DNA of 64,000 bases from Candidatus Latescibacterota bacterium (GTDB taxonomy: Bacteria; Latescibacterota; UBA2968; SICM01), in the NCBI GenBank assembly GCA_965217865.1, contig CBDCJO010000002.1, positions 2,592,001 through 2,656,000 on the forward strand. The letters run 5' to 3'. The position numbers and the translations under genes were made by a program. A model generated the notes under the pieces. It saw only the letters and a list, made by a program, of their open reading frames with translations. It did no database searches and was not told the DNA's origin. This document shows, piece by piece, positions 376 to 10,094 of this stretch (position 1 is the first letter of the stretch; the number at the start of each line of letters is the position of its first letter).

Positions 376-1901
376 CAGCCTGTTGAAAAAGTGCGTTTAT
401 GCCAAGATGACTGTTGTCTTTCCTTGTGGTTTGGTCCTATGATATATCAGGTTCAAACTGAGAAGGGAGGACGAGCAAATGGCAATGGGAAAACGAGGCC
501 GACAGAGACAGGAAAACCTGTTCATCGCATCGAACACTTTGGTGAAATCTCCGGGTCATCCGTTCTACGAGAAGCTGAATCAGGTATTGGGGGCGAACGG
601 CTTCGACGAGTTCGTCGAGGGGCTTTGCCAGCGGTATTACGCTCCTCATATGGGTCGCAAGGGCATTCCGCCCGGGGTTTATTTTCGGATGCTTTTGATT
701 GGGTATTTCGAGGGACTTGATTCGGAACGTGGGATCGAATGGCGTGTATCTGACTCGCTGACGTTGCGCCGGTTTTTGGGGTATGCCCTTGACGAACAGA
801 CCCCGGATCATTCCAGCCTGTCTCGCATCCGGCATCGGCTTCCCTTGGAAGTTCACGAAGCGGTTTTCAAGTGGATCCTGAGGGTCTTGTGCAAAGCGGG
901 TCTGGTGAAGGGGAAGACGTTGGGCGTGGATGCTACGACACTGGAGGCCAACGCCGCGATGCGCAGCATTGTACGCCGTGACACGGGTGAAGGCTACCAG
1001 GCATTCCTTGAGAATCTGGCCAAGGCCTCGGGCATTGAAACGCCTACCCGCGAGGACTTGTCCAAGATCGATAAGAAGCGACCGAAGAAGGGATCGAACC
1101 AGGACTGGGAGCACCCGCACGACCCGGATGCCAAGATCGCTAAGATGAAGGACGGTCGCACGCACATGGCGCACAAGGTGGAGCACGCGGTGGATCTGGA
1201 CACCAATGCCATTGTGGCAGTGGCGTTGTCGGGAGCAGATGAAGGAGATACCGAGTCGTTGCCCTGGACGCTGCTCGAGGCGCAGCTCAATCTCAAGCAG
1301 GTCGCGAAGGACGAAAAAGCTGCCAAACGTTTGCACAGACAGCGTATACGGGAGGTGGTTGCGGACAAAGGATATCATAGCAACGATGTATTGACCAGTC
1401 TGAAGCAAGGCGGCATCCGGAGTTACATTTCAGAACCGGATCGGGGACGCCGCAAGTGGAACGGCCGACGAGATGAGCAGGCCGCGGTATATGCGAATCG
1501 ACGCCGGATCAAGGGAGATCGCGGCAAGGCCTTGCGCCGAAGTCGTGCAGAACGGGTGGAAAGAACCATCGCTCACACATATGATACCGGTGGCATGCGC
1601 AGGTTGCACTTGAGAGACCGCGGCAATATCCTCAAGCGTTTGCTGATCCACATCGGGGGCTGCAACCTGGCTCTGCTCATGCGCAAAGTGATGGGCGTAG
1701 GTACTCCGAAGGCCCTCCAGGACCTGGCCAAGGCCTTGCAGCGTCTACTGCTCGTCCTACAATCACGTTTGCTGCCCTCGGTCACCTTTTTAACCTCTTA
1801 TCAGCGTCTCCTGCTCAATCTCCTTACCTTGATTTATCTGACCCGCACTCCAGGCGTCTTTTCCGTTTATGTGCGTTGAAAGGTAGTTCTTCAACGGGCT
1901 G
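376..1901 (+). mobile_element. IS1182-family insertion sequence, copy 1 (complete, 1526 bp)
   Basis: Terminal IRs CAGCCTGTTGAAAAA / CAGCCCGTTGAAGAA; ATAG duplicated at 372-375 and 1902-1905; near-identical copies at 4447 and 22337. Confidence 0.92.
479..1879 (+). CDS. IS1182-family DDE transposase
   Basis: DUF772-like N-terminus (PDHSSLSRIR) and DDE motifs GVDATT, VADKGY, RAERVER. Confidence 0.92.
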   Translation: MAMGKRGRQRQENLFIASNTLVKSPGHPFYEKLNQVLGANGFDEFVEGLCQRYYAPHMGRKGIPPGVYFRMLLIGYFEGLDSERGIEWRVSDSLTLRRFLGYALDEQTPDHSSLSRIRHRLPLEVHEAVFKWILRVLCKAGLVKGKTLGVDATTLEANAAMRSIVRRDTGEGYQAFLENLAKASGIETPTREDLSKIDKKRPKKGSNQDWEHPHDPDAKIAKMKDGRTHMAHKVEHAVDLDTNAIVAVALSGADEGDTESLPWTLLEAQLNLKQVAKDEKAAKRLHRQRIREVVADKGYHSNDVLTSLKQGGIRSYISEPDRGRRKWNGRRDEQAAVYANRRRIKGDRGKALRRSRAERVERTIAHTYDTGGMRRLHLRDRGNILKRLLIHIGGCNLALLMRKVMGVGTPKALQDLAKALQRLLLVLQSRLLPSVTFLTSYQRLLLNLLTLIYLTRTPGVFSVYVR

Positions 1902-3360
1902 ATAGGGGGGCCAGTTGGGATCGAACCTCCCGGGAGATCGAACTCATCGTCGTGTTGTTCAACCATTTCCGAACGGCCTCAACAATCGGTTGGAGAGGCG
2001 GCTGGCCTGGACCTCCCCCTTCTCCATTCAGAATGAGAAGACCCGATATCCTGGCCTGTGCTCGAATTTCGTCAAGGAACCTCGTCTTGCCGATCCCGGC
2101 CTCCCCGCTGATCACGACCAGACGACCCCGTCCCTCGTTCGCATCCGACAACAAGCGGTTTAAAACCGCGATCTCTTCTCCCCTGCCCACAAACGTGGGC
2201 CGAAGCAGGACCGGGGAACGATCGCGGATTCTTGATCCTGTCGGGGTCCGGACCGGCTCTCCGATTGCCGTCAAGGCCGAAAGCAGGTCATCTGCGGACT
2301 GATACCGGTTAACGGGGTCCTTTTCAAGAAGGGTCAAAACAATCTGCTGAAGGGACGTCGGAATATCCGAACTGTGTTCGCGAGGAGGCACCGGAATCTC
2401 GCGGATGTGTTTGAGAGCCACCGAAGCCGGGCTCTCTCCGTCGAAAGGAAGTCGCTCAGTTAAGATCTCATAAAGGATCACGCCGAGCGAATAAAGGTCT
2501 GACCGTTGATCGACGCCCGTTCCCCGCACCTGTTCGGGGGACATATAGTGGATCGTACCGGAAATGCCACGCTCCTCCTTCAGGTCGATCTCCTCCTCAG
2601 GGGTGGCCAGACCCATATCCATAAGCTTTATACGGAGATCCTTTACGCGCCTTCCAGCGAACATCAGGTTGCCAGGCTTCAAGTCCCGATGAATGAAACC
2701 GTTGGCGTGGATGTAGCCCAAAGCCGAACAGATTTGAGAGAGAAACGACAGGAGGGATGCAGGACGGTTAAGAGCCGTCTTGAGGGAAGAACGGGGGGAA
2801 GAGAGCGCCCCTTCCAGCGTCCTACCGGAGAGGTACTCCATCGTAAAGTAAGGGGATCCGGTGTGGATCCCGCTTTCGAACACATCCACCAGGTTGGGAT
2901 GTGAAAGCCGGGAAAGAGTATAAAACTCGCGCCTGAATCGTTCGGCCGGTTTTGAGCCGGGCGTTGAAGATGAAAGCATCTTTAAAGCAACGACCAGGCC
3001 GTCCTGCCGGGCGTCCCGAACCTGGTATACCTCACCCATTCCCCCGGCCCCAAGGGATCGAACCACCCGATAACGATCATCAATCAGGTGGCCCTTCCGA
3101 AGCATCTTGACAGCTCCCGACAAACTCATCGCACGCCGAGCCCGAGAAAATTGGGGTTTCGAAAACTTGTGCGTTCCTGAACCAGATGCTTTCAACGGTT
3201 TTAGTTCGTGGAACAATTTAACAATTCTATTTTTCGGAATCAACGAAAATCAATCAATTCCAGTGCAATAGGGGAGTTGCATACGAATAAAGCATTAGCA
3301 AATTTCAAAATAAAAATAGGGGTTAATCCTTAAAACCCGTTCCGACAGGTAAGATTTTTC

Positions 3361-3398: not shown

Positions 3399-3475
<77 letters not shown>

Positions 3476-4002: not shown

Positions 4003-4446
4003 ATGAAAAAATCCATCCGTGGAATCTGGTCCGGGATACCCATGCCGTGGAAAGAGACGGAGGAACTGGATCGCGCCGCTTTGATCCGAACGGTGAAGCG
4101 GTGCGTAGAAGGTGGGAGCCACGGAATCTATGTGGCGGGAACTACGGGTGAGTTTCACGCCATGGGAGAAGCCCAGTTTCTGGACGTGGTCGAGACGTTT
4201 ACGGCCGCGATGAGAAACTATGCTTCCACCGGAGTCCAGGTGGGTTGCGGAGGTTTCTCGTTACGTCAAGTGTTCGATCGTATCGAAACGGCGACCGCCA
4301 ATGGGTGTGACGAGATTCAGCTTCCGTTGCCCGGTTGGGAGCCTTTGGACGATGACGAGGTGCTTGGCTTTTTCCAGGTCATTGCCGAGCGATTTCAGCC
4401 GTCCGGATCACTGTTTATGATAATACCAACTGCGGACGAACCATAG
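4003..4446 (+). pseudogene. Dihydrodipicolinate synthase (DapA/NanA)-family protein, N-terminal half, truncated by IS1182 copy 2
   Basis: GIYVAGTTGEF motif; apparent 1-bp frameshift near 4395 (alternative frame RITVYDN); ends at the IS right IR. Confidence 0.8.
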
Positions 4447-5941
4447 CAGCCCGTTGAAGAACTACCTTTCAACGCACATAAACGGAAAAGACGCCTGGAG
4501 TGCGGGTCAGATAAATCAAGGTAAGGAGATTGAGCAGGAGACGCTGATAAGAGGTTAAAAAGGTGACCGAGGGCAGCAAACGTGATTGTAGGACGAGCAG
4601 TAGACGCTGCAAGGCCTTGGCCAGGTCCTGGAGGGCCACGCCCATCACTTTGCGCATGAGCAGAGCCAGGTTGCAGCCCCCGATGTGGATCAGCAAACGC
4701 TTGAGGATATTGCCGCGGTCTCTCAAGTGCAACCTGCGCATGCCACCGGTATCATATGTGTGAGCGATGGTTCTTTCCACCCGTTCTGCACGACTTCGGC
4801 GCAAGGCCTTGCCGCGATCTCCCTTGATCCGGCGTCGATTCGCATATACCGCGGCCTGCTCATCTCGTCGGCCGTTCCACTTGCGGCGTCCCCGATCCGG
4901 TTCTGAAATGTAACTCCGGATGCCGCCTTGCTTCAGACTGGTCAATACATCGTTGCTATGATATCCTTTGTCCGCAACCACCTCCCGTATACGCTGTCTG
5001 TGCAAACGTTTGGCAGCTTTTTCGTCCTTCGCGACCTGCTTGAGATTGAGCTGCGCCTCGAGCAGCGTCCAGGGCAACGACTCGGTATCTCCTTCATCTG
5101 CTCCCGACAACGCCACTGCCACAATGGCATTGGTGTCCAGATCCACCGCGTGCTCCACCTTGTGCGCCATGTGCGTGCGACCGTCCTTCATCTTAGCGAT
5201 CTTGGCATCCGGGTCGTGCGGGTGCTCCCAGTCCTGGTTCGATCCCTTCTTCGGTCGCTTCTTATCGATCTTGGACAAGTCCTCGCGGGTAGGCGTTTCA
5301 ATGCCCGAGGCCTTGGCCAGATTCTCAAGGAATGCCTGGTAGCCTTCACCCGTGTCACGGCGTACAATGCTGCGCATCGCGGCGTTGGCCTCCAGTGTCG
5401 TAGCATCCACGCCCAACGTCTTCCCCTTCACCAGACCCGCTTTGCACAAGACCCTCAGGATCCACTTGAAAACCGCTTCGTGAACTTCCAAGGGAAGCCG
5501 ATGCCGGATGCGAGACAGGCTGGAATGATCCGGGGTCTGTTCGTCAAGGGCATACCCCAAAAACCGGCGCAACGTCAGCGAGTCAGATACACGCCATTCG
5601 ATCCCACGTTCCGAATCAAGTCCCTCGAAATACCCAATCAAAAGCATCCGAAAATAAACCCCGGGCGGAATGCCCTTGCGACCCATATGAGGAGCGTAAT
5701 ACCGCTGGCAAAGCCCCTCGACGAACTCGTCGAAGCCGTTCGCCCCCAATACCTGATTCAGCTTCTCGTAGAACGGATGACCCGGAGATTTCACCAAAGT
5801 GTTCGATGTGATGAACAGGTTTTCCTGTCTCTGTCGTCCTCGTTTTCCCATTGCCATTTGCTCGTCCTCCCTTCTCAGTTTGAACCTGATATATCATAGG
5901 ACCAAACCACAAGGAAAGACAACAGTCATCTTGGCATAAAC
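4447..5941 (-). mobile_element. IS1182 copy 2, lacking the left IR (about 20 bp missing)
   Basis: Right IR at 4447; identity to copy 1 stops at 5941; 12-bp in-frame deletion (GTPK) in the transposase. Confidence 0.9.
4469..5857 (-). CDS. IS1182-family transposase
   Basis: Nearly identical to 479-1879. Confidence 0.9.
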   Translation of the reverse strand: MAMGKRGRQRQENLFITSNTLVKSPGHPFYEKLNQVLGANGFDEFVEGLCQRYYAPHMGRKGIPPGVYFRMLLIGYFEGLDSERGIEWRVSDSLTLRRFLGYALDEQTPDHSSLSRIRHRLPLEVHEAVFKWILRVLCKAGLVKGKTLGVDATTLEANAAMRSIVRRDTGEGYQAFLENLAKASGIETPTREDLSKIDKKRPKKGSNQDWEHPHDPDAKIAKMKDGRTHMAHKVEHAVDLDTNAIVAVALSGADEGDTESLPWTLLEAQLNLKQVAKDEKAAKRLHRQRIREVVADKGYHSNDVLTSLKQGGIRSYISEPDRGRRKWNGRRDEQAAVYANRRRIKGDRGKALRRSRAERVERTIAHTYDTGGMRRLHLRDRGNILKRLLIHIGGCNLALLMRKVMGVALQDLAKALQRLLLVLQSRLLPSVTFLTSYQRLLLNLLTLIYLTRTPGVFSVYVR

Positions 5942-7588: not shown

Positions 7589-8474
7589 TTAACCAAACTC
7601 GGTTATTTTCCAGTTTGCGTACCAGCGAGAGTCCTCGGGCGGTGATTCAGGTCCGTTCTGCATGGAATGAAAATCTTTCAGTCTTGGCCGGATTTCCTTC
7701 TCCCAAATATTTTCGATCTGATTAAACGTCAGGGTACTCCCACCGGGTTTAAGGCGGGCATATTCCTCTAAAAGGTTCCCGGCTTTTTCCTCCAGATGCT
7801 GGACGATATCCGCCAACATTTCTTCCCCTGCCCGGCGGTCGGATTCTCCCGCGCAATCCCCCAGGGCAAAATGAGGAGGAGGTTCGTCCGGCGCGGGAAG
7901 GCGAGAGATATCCACACAATCAGGCTCGAGGGCCCAGAGGAGGGATGTCTCGCCCCTTCCTGCGTGTCCTCCCATACCTCCTCGATCTTTGAATCGTGCG
8001 CGCTCGGTACCAGCTCCTATATGTGAATAGATCCGGGCGGAAACGTGCTGTTGCAGGATATCCAGGAGGATCGGGATGTCCAGGCGGTGCGGACCGGAGT
8101 GACCGGAAAAGATGATGACCCCGTGGAATCCCAGGGCATCTATCGCCCGGACATGATAACAGAGGTTTCTGGAAAAGAGCCACGGGGGAACGGCCGTTAG
8201 CCACGGACGCACTTCACCCACTTTTTTTAGCCCATGCGCCGTAGATTCCTACCTCGTGACAATTCCAATATTCGGGCGGGGCGACGATGCCACCGAAGGT
8301 CCGGGCGACCCGGCAAAGGGTTCCGTGGGCCCTTATCGCGTCCATCCCAACGGCGTTCTGCGGTCCGTGAGGTTCGCAGAGGCCATACGGCAGGTAGGCG
8401 ATGGGGCATTCCTCAAAGGCGGCCTCGAGCTCATCGGGGAACATACGGTCCCAGCGAACTTCCCTTCGCTTCAT
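7589..8474 (-). pseudogene. Creatininase-family protein with a frameshift in the T7 tract at 8222-8228 (possibly a sequencing error)
   Basis: LPYGLCEPHGP...GMD in 8214-8474; SGH and GHAGRGETS in 7589-8221. Confidence 0.85.
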
Positions 8475-8598
8475 CGGTTTGGCTCCTTGGTGATAGGCCT
8501 GAAAGAAATCGCTTCAGAATCGATGATGCTGTTTTCGATTACGTAAAGATAGCATTTCAACGCCGCCTCATACAAAAACTTTATGTCGAATCATTCCA

Positions 8599-8628
8599 TA
8601 AAAAAACGGCGGCCGATTTGGCCGCCGC
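8599..8628 (-). terminator. Rho-independent terminator after the ECF-FliG_C gene
   Basis: CGGCGGCC-AAATC-GGCCGCCG stem followed by T7 on the minus strand. Confidence 0.75.
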
Positions 8629-8665
8629 TGACAAATTATAATTAATTGATATTCTTGAACTTAAG

Positions 8666-9511
8666 TCATTGCTGCTGCTGTGTTTGGTTTTCCGATGATG
8701 GACGAATTTTCCCTGTGGTTTGCAGACTATGAATCGTTTGCAGGATTTTCTTTTGTGAAGCTTCAATATCTTCCAGGGAAACCGAAGATTCTGTCCAAAA
8801 ATTTCGGATAATTCCACGTACGCGCTCCGAGACGTTTGACATGGTCCTTTTCTCGACCTCCCGAATGTCTTCTCCTCTCCCTTTCAAGGCAACTGCCAGG
8901 TCCTTCGTGTAAATTTCTCTAAGAGTTGTCTGGATCTCCTCATCCGTCAAGAGTGTCCAATCCCTAAAAGTTCGGATATCGACTCGATTGACCTCCCGGA
9001 GTTGCTTTCGGGCCCTATGCAGTCTCATTTTCACCGCGGCCGAAGAGATGCCCATGAATTGGCCGACTGATTCTATCCGTTCCCCATCGAGATAGTAGAG
9101 CACGACAGCCTCTCTATCGCTTTGAGAAAGCTGTTTCAAAGCATCCAGGACTTGCCCTCGGTTTTCATGCTTCTCAAGGGCCTCGTCTGGCGGAAGACTC
9201 GATCCAACAATGGTATCAGGATCAACATCCACTCTTTCCAATGGAACGGTCTTTCGCTTTCGGAAATCCATCTTGCACAGGTTCAGCACAATTTTTCTCA
9301 ACCAACTTCCAAACTGCTCCCCATCATTCAGCATGTCTAACCGGTAATATGCCCGGATGAATGCCTCCTGCGCCAGGTCCTCAGCCAGGTCAAAATCGTT
9401 TGTGTAACTGATGGCAACTCCATAAACGGAGTTCCGATATCGCTCTACAAGCCGGCGATATGCATTGCGGTTTCCCCCCAAGGTCTGCTTGACCAGATTC
9501 CGGTCACTCAC
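8666..9511 (-). CDS. ECF sigma-70 factor with a C-terminal FliG_C-like domain
   Basis: Sigma2 (LAEDLAQEAFIRAY, FGSWLRKI) and sigma4 (AVKMRLHRARKQL); C-terminal TFRDWTLLTDEEIQTTLREI..KDLAVALKG...NVSER...DIEASQKKILQTIHSLQTTGKI resembles the FliG C-terminus. Confidence 0.88.
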   Translation of the reverse strand: MSDRNLVKQTLGGNRNAYRRLVERYRNSVYGVAISYTNDFDLAEDLAQEAFIRAYYRLDMLNDGEQFGSWLRKIVLNLCKMDFRKRKTVPLERVDVDPDTIVGSSLPPDEALEKHENRGQVLDALKQLSQSDREAVVLYYLDGERIESVGQFMGISSAAVKMRLHRARKQLREVNRVDIRTFRDWTLLTDEEIQTTLREIYTKDLAVALKGRGEDIREVEKRTMSNVSERVRGIIRNFWTESSVSLEDIEASQKKILQTIHSLQTTGKIRPSSENQTQQQQ

Positions 9512-9547
9512 AAGCTGTATTCTCCTGTGCGAAGGCCTTTCATATAC

Positions 9548-9575
9548 AGATGCAGAAAGTGGGAGTTGGGTAACA
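9548..9575 (-). promoter_or_regulatory. Putative ECF-type autoregulatory promoter
   Basis: TGTTACC-N16-CATCT upstream of RBS AGGAG and the sigma start; inferred from typical ECF promoter geometry. Confidence 0.4.
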
Positions 9576-9686
9576 AGAAATGTTTATGATTTGAGGTATT
9601 TTGAAAGAGGACGGTGATGAAAAGAGAGGATATGCTCGGGGTTGGTTGCTCTATTCGTTTAAAATTGGGCGGTTAGATTAGAACTG

Positions 9687-10094
9687 CTAATCGTCCGGGG
9701 AAAAAGTATAACACCAGGCCTCTCCCTCCAAAACCGTTTTGCCGTCTTCCCGAGTGACTTTGATCTTCAACTGGGTAACCGGTTTGGTTTCGTGGATACT
9801 GGCAACTTCAGCTTCAGCCGTTATGGTATCTCCGATAAAAACGGGAGCCGTGAATTGCCATTTTTGACTCAGGAAAACAGTGCCGGGGCCCGGCATGTCC
9901 ATCGCAACGAGAGCATGAAGAAGCCCGGTCGTTATGCCGCCCTGAACAACCAGACGTTTAAATTTGGTTTTAGAGGCAAAGGATTTATCGAAATGAATGG
10001 GATTGTAGTCGCCGGTCAAGGCCCCGAATGTTTTGACGTGATCGGCCGTAAGCGTCACGCTGCGTACTGCCTTTTGTCCGATGGATAGGTCCAT
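9687..10094 (-). CDS. MaoC-family (R)-enoyl-CoA hydratase/dehydratase
   Basis: LTGDYNPIH and FTAPVFIGDTI motifs; RBS supports the start at 10094. Confidence 0.9.
   Translation of the reverse strand: MDLSIGQKAVRSVTLTADHVKTFGALTGDYNPIHFDKSFASKTKFKRLVVQGGITTGLLHALVAMDMPGPGTVFLSQKWQFTAPVFIGDTITAEAEVASIHETKPVTQLKIKVTREDGKTVLEGEAWCYTFSPDD

Follow-up and report, generated by a model that had tools for sequence, protein, structure and literature searches.

ECF sigma factors that are regulated by C-terminal extensions have been described in the sections consulted of PMC7826278 and PMC8999054, and according to the former, for the groups with extensions covered in those sections, the sigma core and the extension travel together. 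The extension considered here has its closest counterparts in the flagellar motor, where the roles of the torque-helix residues of FliG are set out in PMC11528121 and PMC6700473 and the complementary charge pairs of the FliG-MotA contact are named in PMC6700473, again within the portions of these papers that were consulted.

The gene under study lies in a 64,000-nt stretch of a Candidatus Latescibacterota assembly (GCA_965217865.1, contig CBDCJO010000002.1, positions 2,592,001 to 2,656,000), hereafter called the window, and had been interpreted in an initial annotation as an ECF sigma factor fused to a FliG_C-like domain. The following features were assigned to it, in window coordinates:

8666..9511, minus strand: ECF sigma-FliG_CC fusion gene, 281 aa, GTG start
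9251..9451, minus strand: sigma-70 region 2, aa 21-87 (Pfam PF04542, E 2e-15)
8993..9157, minus strand: sigma-70 region 4, aa 119-173 (Pfam PF08281, E 4e-13; PF04545, E 1e-9)
8992..8993, minus strand: junction of an in-frame 57-nt (19-aa) linker deletion, between E173 and V174 (cluster comparison)
8696..8980, minus strand: FliG_CC-like domain, aa 178-272 (Pfam, TIGR00207, PDB match and predicted fold)
8795..8830, minus strand: torque-helix equivalent, aa 228-239 (alignment with 11 true FliG)
9521..9526, minus strand: Shine-Dalgarno-like AGGAGA, 9 nt 5' of the GTG (read from the sequence)
9549..9574, minus strand: putative ECF promoter, -35 GTTACC (9574-9569), 15 nt, -10 GCATC (9553-9549) (clade-common motif)
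8598..8629, minus strand: intrinsic-terminator-like hairpin, 10 pairs (8 GC) plus T tail (hairpin scan)

The fusion itself is confirmed: Pfam places Sigma70_r4_2 at aa 119-171 (E 4e-13) and FliG_C (PF01706) at aa 166-269 (E 3.8e-16, 59.7 bits against a cut-off of 23.3). The last ~95 aa, in which a FliG_C pattern had been recognised by eye, proved to be just that, the last 107 aa alone retrieving FliG_C at 1.3e-16 in Pfam, residues 240-326 of TIGR00207 fliG at E 1.6e-11 and the T. maritima FliG_C structure 1qc7 in the PDB at E 4.3e-11. An AlphaFold2 model was obtained for P0003, a linker-bearing relative (98% identical) standing in for the linker-less window protein, and superposes on 1qc7_B with an rmsd of 1.7 Å over 92 columns (TM 0.90 by target); its pLDDT is 78 overall and about 90 across most of FliG_CC, its pTM is 0.37 (from a shallow alignment of 16), and its best Foldseek matches are ECFs. 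A complex prediction for the sigma core with FliG_CC scored 0.04 against a mark of 0.32, which counts neither for nor against a contact. With regard to the sigma part, TIGR02937 gives 103 bits (cut-off 42.9), and the window fusion has the sigma2 and sigma4 domains, the short linker and the missing sigma3 that define ECF group 4 at the domain level; among the matches listed, the specific NCBIfam sigma models all scored under their own cut-offs.

In Pfam the window fusion matched neither FliG_M nor MgtE_N at E<=1, nor FliG_N, and against full-length FliG it reaches 44 bits in TIGR00207 where the cut-off is 226.7, so that the protein is not a FliG. As the fused piece begins at the position of the MFxF motif of true FliG, and no FliG_M match is found, the homology is confined to FliG_CC. 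The window gene thus encodes an ECF sigma factor fused to a genuine FliG_C that is limited to the torque subdomain FliG_CC. The initial annotation had also proposed that the domain was repurposed, as a regulatory or oligomerisation module or as a link to a FliG/MgtE_N-like partner. Removal from the motor is supported by the erosion of its torque charges, described below, and a regulatory role is plausible, whereas neither oligomerisation nor, in view of the domain content, the proposed partner gained support, the family pointing instead to MotA (14/29 fusions).

Neither an anti-sigma-like nor a flagellar gene adjoins the fusion gene, as had been stated; Pfam identifies a MaoC dehydratase on its upstream side and, downstream, a creatininase-family gene that is split, and no conserved neighbourhood was found when the loci of five relatives were taken together with the window (0 flagellar genes among 34 neighbours). 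The terminator attributed to the gene corresponds to a hairpin-like site 3' of it at 8629-8605, which is weak by itself, such sites numbering 2 as compared with 1.3 in shuffles. The structural traits of C-terminally extended ECFs are all found here: an extension of 108 aa, no anti-sigma nearby and a core that clusters by extension type. Elsewhere in the window, the creatininase-family gene at 7589-8474 (minus strand) is split into two overlapping ORFs, both PF02633, while near-identical transposase-like ORFs lie in opposite orientation at 479-1879 (plus strand) and 4469-5857 (minus strand), the ORFs adjoining them (Ser/Thr kinase-like, 1891-3243, and DHDPS-like, 4003-4446) looking truncated; a tRNA gene at 3399-3472 (plus strand) is the sole Rfam match in the window.

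Relatives were collected by searching 50%-cluster representatives with P0003 and taking the best 150, among which 27 combine sigma with FliG_C (29 when P0003 and P0005 are added), and the architecture is therefore recurrent and not unique to this assembly. In long members the sigma is followed by 1-4 FliG_CC and then by 0-2 MotA cytoplasmic parts that lack membrane helices. The fusions are spread over at least three separate sigma clades and apparently belong to Ca. Latescibacterota. In a quick tree of 166 sigma cores, the window core falls in clade A (SH-aLRT 99); FliG_C is present in 14 of its 15 rows, so that core and extension travel together, and the 15th row is a 192-aa protein with almost no extension; groups B and C are placed elsewhere on the core tree, C having a cyclase domain in between. 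A single origin of all 26 FliG_C-bearing cores was rejected (p-AU 2e-5, on 62 of the 166 rows), which implies repeated gains, or one gain with many swaps. Ten of the 17 clade-A proteins end directly after FliG_CC (P0015 and P0016 possibly being incomplete), and the first repeat of the tandem forms constitutes a distinct diverged subfamily (10 rows, SH-aLRT 99).

The remaining relatives share the common sigma core and a conserved linker followed by other tails, which in the 93 proteins scanned include TPR (18), BFN (bifunctional nuclease, 11), PheS-like (2) and ankyrin (2). P0070, P0110 and P0137 consist of an ECF sigma, an adenylate/guanylate cyclase, TPR and FliG_C, with an additional GNAT in P0070, and keep R281 and both acidic residues. 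In the host genome (G000), five ECFs (C2:189510-190814, 679221-680561, 4557572-4558957, 4549390-4551420 and 1437550-1438980) have the linker in common and differ in their tails, which by eye are PheS-like, bifunctional-nuclease-like, TPR and nucleotidyltransferase-like, each gene with a promoter-like motif of its own. Several fusion candidates were discarded: G061:C245, G011 and G072 have no FliG_C, G104 is a sigma with two MotA pieces in which FliG_C is not significant, and the G088:C524 gene is interrupted by the contig end. Scanning with the family alignment gave one full-length fusion in genomes (L033, best 80 of 117 stretches) and none in the best 80 of 323 metagenome stretches, where the longest match runs to residue 234; in the ESM Atlas the best scores were 0.78, below 0.9 and hence leads only, for FliG_C-containing clusters of Myxococcota and Spirochaetota.

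A partner for the fused domain is indicated by the longer members, since 14/29 sigma+FliG_C fusions (7/17 in clade A) run on into a helical tail of ~125 aa. The equivalent tail of a stand-alone module from the same genome matches MotA 77-138 plus 222-244 of PDB 8ucs_C (E 1.7e-11), the 83 residues between the two segments being replaced by 8, and profiles of the sigma-fused tails retrieve the MotA of G000 from among 52,890 ORFs at E 2.3e-3 (clade A) and 4.8e-10 (clade B). No membrane helix is seen in the tails, with maximum hydropathy of 0.5-1.57 as compared with 1.9-2.8 in MotA, and the parent cassette is accordingly FliG_CC plus a soluble MotA cytoplasmic domain, whose counterparts in the motor contact each other to generate torque. 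Foldseek on the module model (pLDDT 86, pTM 0.58) found FliG_C and did not list MotA among the matches shown, and for this reason the MotA call rests on sequence.

Across 32 clusters of stand-alone modules, R281, E289 and MotA R90 are conserved in 32/32 and an acidic residue at E98 in 29/32. Two stand-alone FliG_CC-MotA proteins are encoded in G000, at C2:4233220-4234014 and C2:2803570-2804241. One FliG_C-MotA(cytoplasmic) gene, G000:C2:2803570-2804699 (L254), has a stop codon that overlaps the ATG of a short extension-less ECF, and its module has 19 homologues; it is an unfused version of the sigma/FliG_C-MotA pairing, and the link to sigma recurs. A sigma gene lies within 1.5 kb of only 2/27 unfused modules. 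About 17/28 module genes (counted by eye) are fused to a different N-terminal head, a conserved segment of ~80 aa with the pattern LP..P.LEQLKKQAK...AQHV.AREYGF..W (L238-L262, e.g. L243, L252 and L258; L023:171-1298), for which a faint Glyoxalase_8 match was obtained in one case only (E 0.027) and which elsewhere is fused to ankyrins. The sequence upstream of the head-bearing module genes looks conserved by eye, and Rfam returned nothing for 15 module loci.

Aligned with true FliG, the window fusion has N237/F238 at the positions of D288/D289, which confirms the earlier observation that the acidic pair is absent from its torque helix. The equivalents of K264 and R281 (R230) are kept, R297 is lost, with S instead, and a 3-residue insertion follows the ALKG motif. 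All torque-helix charges, namely R281, D288/D289 and R297, are kept in 11/11 true FliG. In the canonical clade-A FliG_CC copies (n=26), R281 is found in 24, D289 in 6, both acidic residues in 1 and R297 in 0, and in the clade-A MotA tails (n=8) R90 is found in 6 and E98 in 3; the residues retained in the clade, R281 and R90, do not form a complementary pair.

The window protein is also shorter than its relatives. The linker between sigma4 and the extension is kept in 6/6 members of the 90% cluster of P0003, the window protein alone being without it, and apart from the linker P0298 differs from the window protein by one residue. A contig from run X1 covers 8935-9800 with 0 differences and so spans the linker-less junction, in this one run only (possibly the source sample), and run X4 shows a loose end at 8992, as expected of the form with the linker; from these two observations the deletion is real and recent. 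The protein stops 9 residues past FliG_CC, as do 6/6 P0003-cluster members and several clade-A proteins, and does not have both halves of the FliG_CC-MotA module in one chain, which P0008-P0014 do. Its FliG_CC has a dN/dS of 0.94 (7 silent, 23 replacement) with respect to a stand-alone paralogue, a pairwise value not assignable to either branch and one that gene conversion between copies could affect. In P0296, P0297 and P0299 the C-terminal half of FliG_CC resembles the stand-alone paralogue, which hints at such conversion. In the sigma core, the subset of strain variants shown comprises 13 silent and 6 replacement changes. The window copy is a stripped-down and possibly eroding member of its family.

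Upstream of the gene, the motif RTWACC-N14/15-GCATC is found at 51-66 nt in 5/6 genes of clade A, which come from 5 genomes (4 matched by pattern and 1 recognised by eye), the sixth gene having a broken 5' end; two of the five motif-bearing genes served to define the pattern, and a third was compared by eye. It is upstream of 0/21 other sigma genes from the relatives, nor does it precede the other ECFs of G000. This motif suggests autoregulation of the predicted sigma factor. Genome-wide it is not enriched (19 sites as compared with 16-27 for wrong spacers), none of the remaining sites was seen before a flagellar gene, and an extended form of it occurs before its own gene only, so that the scan gave no regulon beyond the fusion gene itself.

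The host is flagellated, as G000 encodes 5 flagellins, FliF, FlhA, 2 FliM, rod genes and MotA. There are 13 FliG_C matches in it, belonging to three full FliG, one frameshifted FliG (two matches), the window gene, two proteins with the helical tail, an aldo-keto-reductase fusion, one two-match protein and two lone domains, one of which is 79% identical to the window copy. P0004 and C2:4972018-4972401 are sigma-less remnants. The aldo-keto-reductase-like fragment fused to FliG_C is at G000:C2:4229257-4229922, and the product of G000:C2:4746786-4748285 is 499 aa long, matches FliG_C twice and has a C-terminal stretch that is hydrophobic. Frameshifts split flhA, motA and one fliG (C2:2199305-2201196, 3899948-3900755 and 1923928-1924957), through error or decay. 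FliG is multiplied class-wide, with up to 10 FliG_M matches per genome; the copies of G000 (C2 2548040, 5266641, 5422516 and 1924064; C1:522474) do not adjoin fliF (C2:2188682), three that were inspected sit amid unrelated genes, and long N-terminal domains are found on some FliG (in L232 sulfatase-modifying-factor-like, as judged by eye). A flagellated genome with an expanded FliG set, and a window copy that is both shortened and linker-deleted, are what the initial annotation, made from the letters alone, did not contain.

A survey of 153 genomes of the phylum, in which no more than 11 candidates per genome were scored, confirmed sigma-FliG_C fusions in G000, G001, G069 (two), G070, G089 and G091. 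A correlation with flagella, proposed earlier as a check, is indeed seen: 6/6 fusion-bearing genomes (6 genera, 3 families) have FlhA and 3-7 FliG_M matches, and at the same 11 candidates per genome no fusion was found in 32 genomes with the sigma family and no FliG_M. The module is present in 15/125 class genomes, with FliG_M in 15/15 and an FlhA match in 13/15, and in genus g10 it occurs in 2/4 FliG-bearing genomes and 0/24 others. This co-occurrence is, however, expected from donor availability alone, and kin are not independent.

The likeliest reading, at somewhat less than an even chance, is that the fused FliG_CC, inherited from a rotor-stator cassette, binds protein and thereby switches a sigma factor whose own gene is among its predicted targets, a reading supported by the domain calls, the family, the MotA-derived partner, the upstream motif and the co-occurrence with flagella. 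In the long members, FliG_CC would pack onto the MotA piece and the two would gate the sigma, in the manner of other ECF extensions, and unattached motor parts, or the stand-alone FliG_CC-MotA proteins, which are soluble, could compete for these surfaces and flip the switch. The intramolecular step does not apply to the window protein, because the MotA half is absent; in this short form the lone FliG_CC would need to encounter a MotA-type partner in trans. The output would be positive feedback on its own promoter, with few or no other targets. A wider form of the proposal is, in our estimation, unlikely: in flagellated Latescibacterota the rotor-stator contact would have been made into a soluble signalling module, attached several times, by fusion or coupling, to ECFs, such that transcription responds directly to how motor parts are supplied or engaged, the window gene being the smallest form that still works and sensing a MotA-type partner in trans.

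Decay has to be regarded as a serious rival since no regulon beyond the gene itself was found, only 2/27 unfused modules lie beside a sigma gene and dN/dS is 0.94 against the paralogue. On that account, which we hold to be rather unlikely without dismissing it, the MotA half was lost and the FliG_CC of the window protein is what was left behind, the sigma core functions, or idles on its own promoter, whether or not the domain is there, and the family cassette may still be a real regulator; the missing MotA half, the lost acidic pair and R297, the tolerated recent deletion of the linker, the two sigma-less remnants and the frameshifted flhA, motA and fliG (if not assembly errors) would all fit it. 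It accounts less well for the recurrence of proteins ending right after FliG_CC, both in clade A (10/17, with the two possibly incomplete proteins) and in 6/6 cluster-1 relatives, or for a fold that appears intact in the P0003 model, for R281 in 24/26 copies and the amplification of the domain to 4 tandem copies in relatives, and for the promoter motif, ribosome site and terminator, all of which are intact. Capture by abundance is conceivable, given up to 10 FliG copies per genome and many unrelated tails, and would lead to a different explanation, namely that an abundant FliG was captured and now covers sigma2/sigma4 like the lid of ECF41, inhibiting or stabilising the sigma in response to a non-flagellar cue. 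The erosion of the torque charges with retention of the hydrophobic core, the diverged first tandem repeat, the many interchangeable tails of the sigma family and a precedent in the sections consulted of PMC8999054 are in its favour, yet it leaves unexplained why a MotA cytoplasmic domain accompanies FliG_C in 14/29 fusions and why four complementary charges are kept in the stand-alone modules, and with a pTM of 0.37 from the shallow alignment the domain packing of the P0003 model is undefined; we judge it improbable.

A direct connection to the motor is still harder to accept and appears very improbable. FliG_CC would then dock the sigma on stators or the C ring and release it when motors are missing or stalled, so as to control flagellar genes, which would suit the confinement of the fusion to FliG/FlhA-bearing genomes, the conservation of R281 and a clade-B fusion located ~18 kb from flhA on the same contig (G089:C48). 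The protein nevertheless lacks FliG_M and FliG_CN, the parts building the middle ring according to the portion consulted of PMC11528121, the acidic pair is lost, no flagellar gene was seen to be preceded by the promoter motif and there are no flagellar neighbours. As for the possibility that the fusion is an assembly artefact or a chance similarity, the assembly does have 9.3% contamination and several frameshifted genes, but FliG_C is matched at E 1e-16, above the curated cut-off, the fusion is present in 6 near-identical cluster members and 5 other genera, and the run contig crosses the junction without differences; the probability left to this explanation is negligible, and it is already refuted.

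The doubt expressed in the initial annotation as to whether this is a characterised ECF extension has proven justified so far: a sigma-FliG_C fusion was not found described in the literature searched, in which few subscription journals were covered, and the word FliG occurs 0 times in the main texts of PMC7826278 and PMC8999054 and 0 times in the searched part of one PMC7826278 supplement, in which an entry could be missed. Identity with ECF123 (with DUF151) was rejected, as the part consulted of that supplement gives ECF123 as actinobacterial with a 20-30 aa extension. The architecture is genuine and recurs, is apparently undescribed, and represents a new variant among the C-terminally extended ECFs.

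To our knowledge, the passage of flagellar motor state to gene expression is known only in pieces. If the switch proposed here were true, a soluble FliG_CC-MotA module on sigma factors would be a direct route from motor state to transcription and would offer, in one natural chain, a model of the torque interface whose expression requires no membrane, and the natural series (1-4 FliG_CC, 0-2 MotA pieces, with or without linker), together with the predicted promoter, is suited to reporter assays. Even if the window copy is only decaying, it marks an ECF subgroup and a domain-shuffling system absent from the searched portions of the classification papers.

In comparison with known systems, the family shares with the C-terminally extended ECFs, as far as the consulted sections describe them, a sigma2+sigma4 core, an extension of >50 aa, no adjacent anti-sigma, a core that clusters by extension type and a candidate promoter upstream of its own gene. 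It differs from them in that the extension is a rotor subdomain, often repeated and then followed by a soluble MotA piece, and in that, within its lineage, different tails have been shuffled onto a single common linker; unlike in ECF41/42/56/57/238/205/294/295, no SnoaL, TPR, WD40 or Cys-rich extension is present in the window protein, in which only FliG_C was found. The likeness to the FliG C-terminal domain (PF01706; 1qc7, 1lkv, 8ucs_H) extends to sequence (E 4e-11), predicted fold (1.7 Å) and the equivalents of K264 and R281, whereas FliG_N, FliG_M, FliG_CN, D288/D289 and R297 are absent and the 3-residue insertion and the sigma fusion are particular to the window protein. In contrast to MotA, the family's piece is soluble and devoid of membrane helices, hence of an ion channel, its charges are partly lost in the clade and it is absent from the window protein. 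The surprising part is the rotor-stator cassette of the family: as in the MotAB-FliG contact (PDB 8ucs; PMC6700473, in the part consulted), the longer members and stand-alone modules have MotA 77-138, here joined to 222-244, and the stand-alone modules keep the equivalents of R90/E98 and R281/D289.
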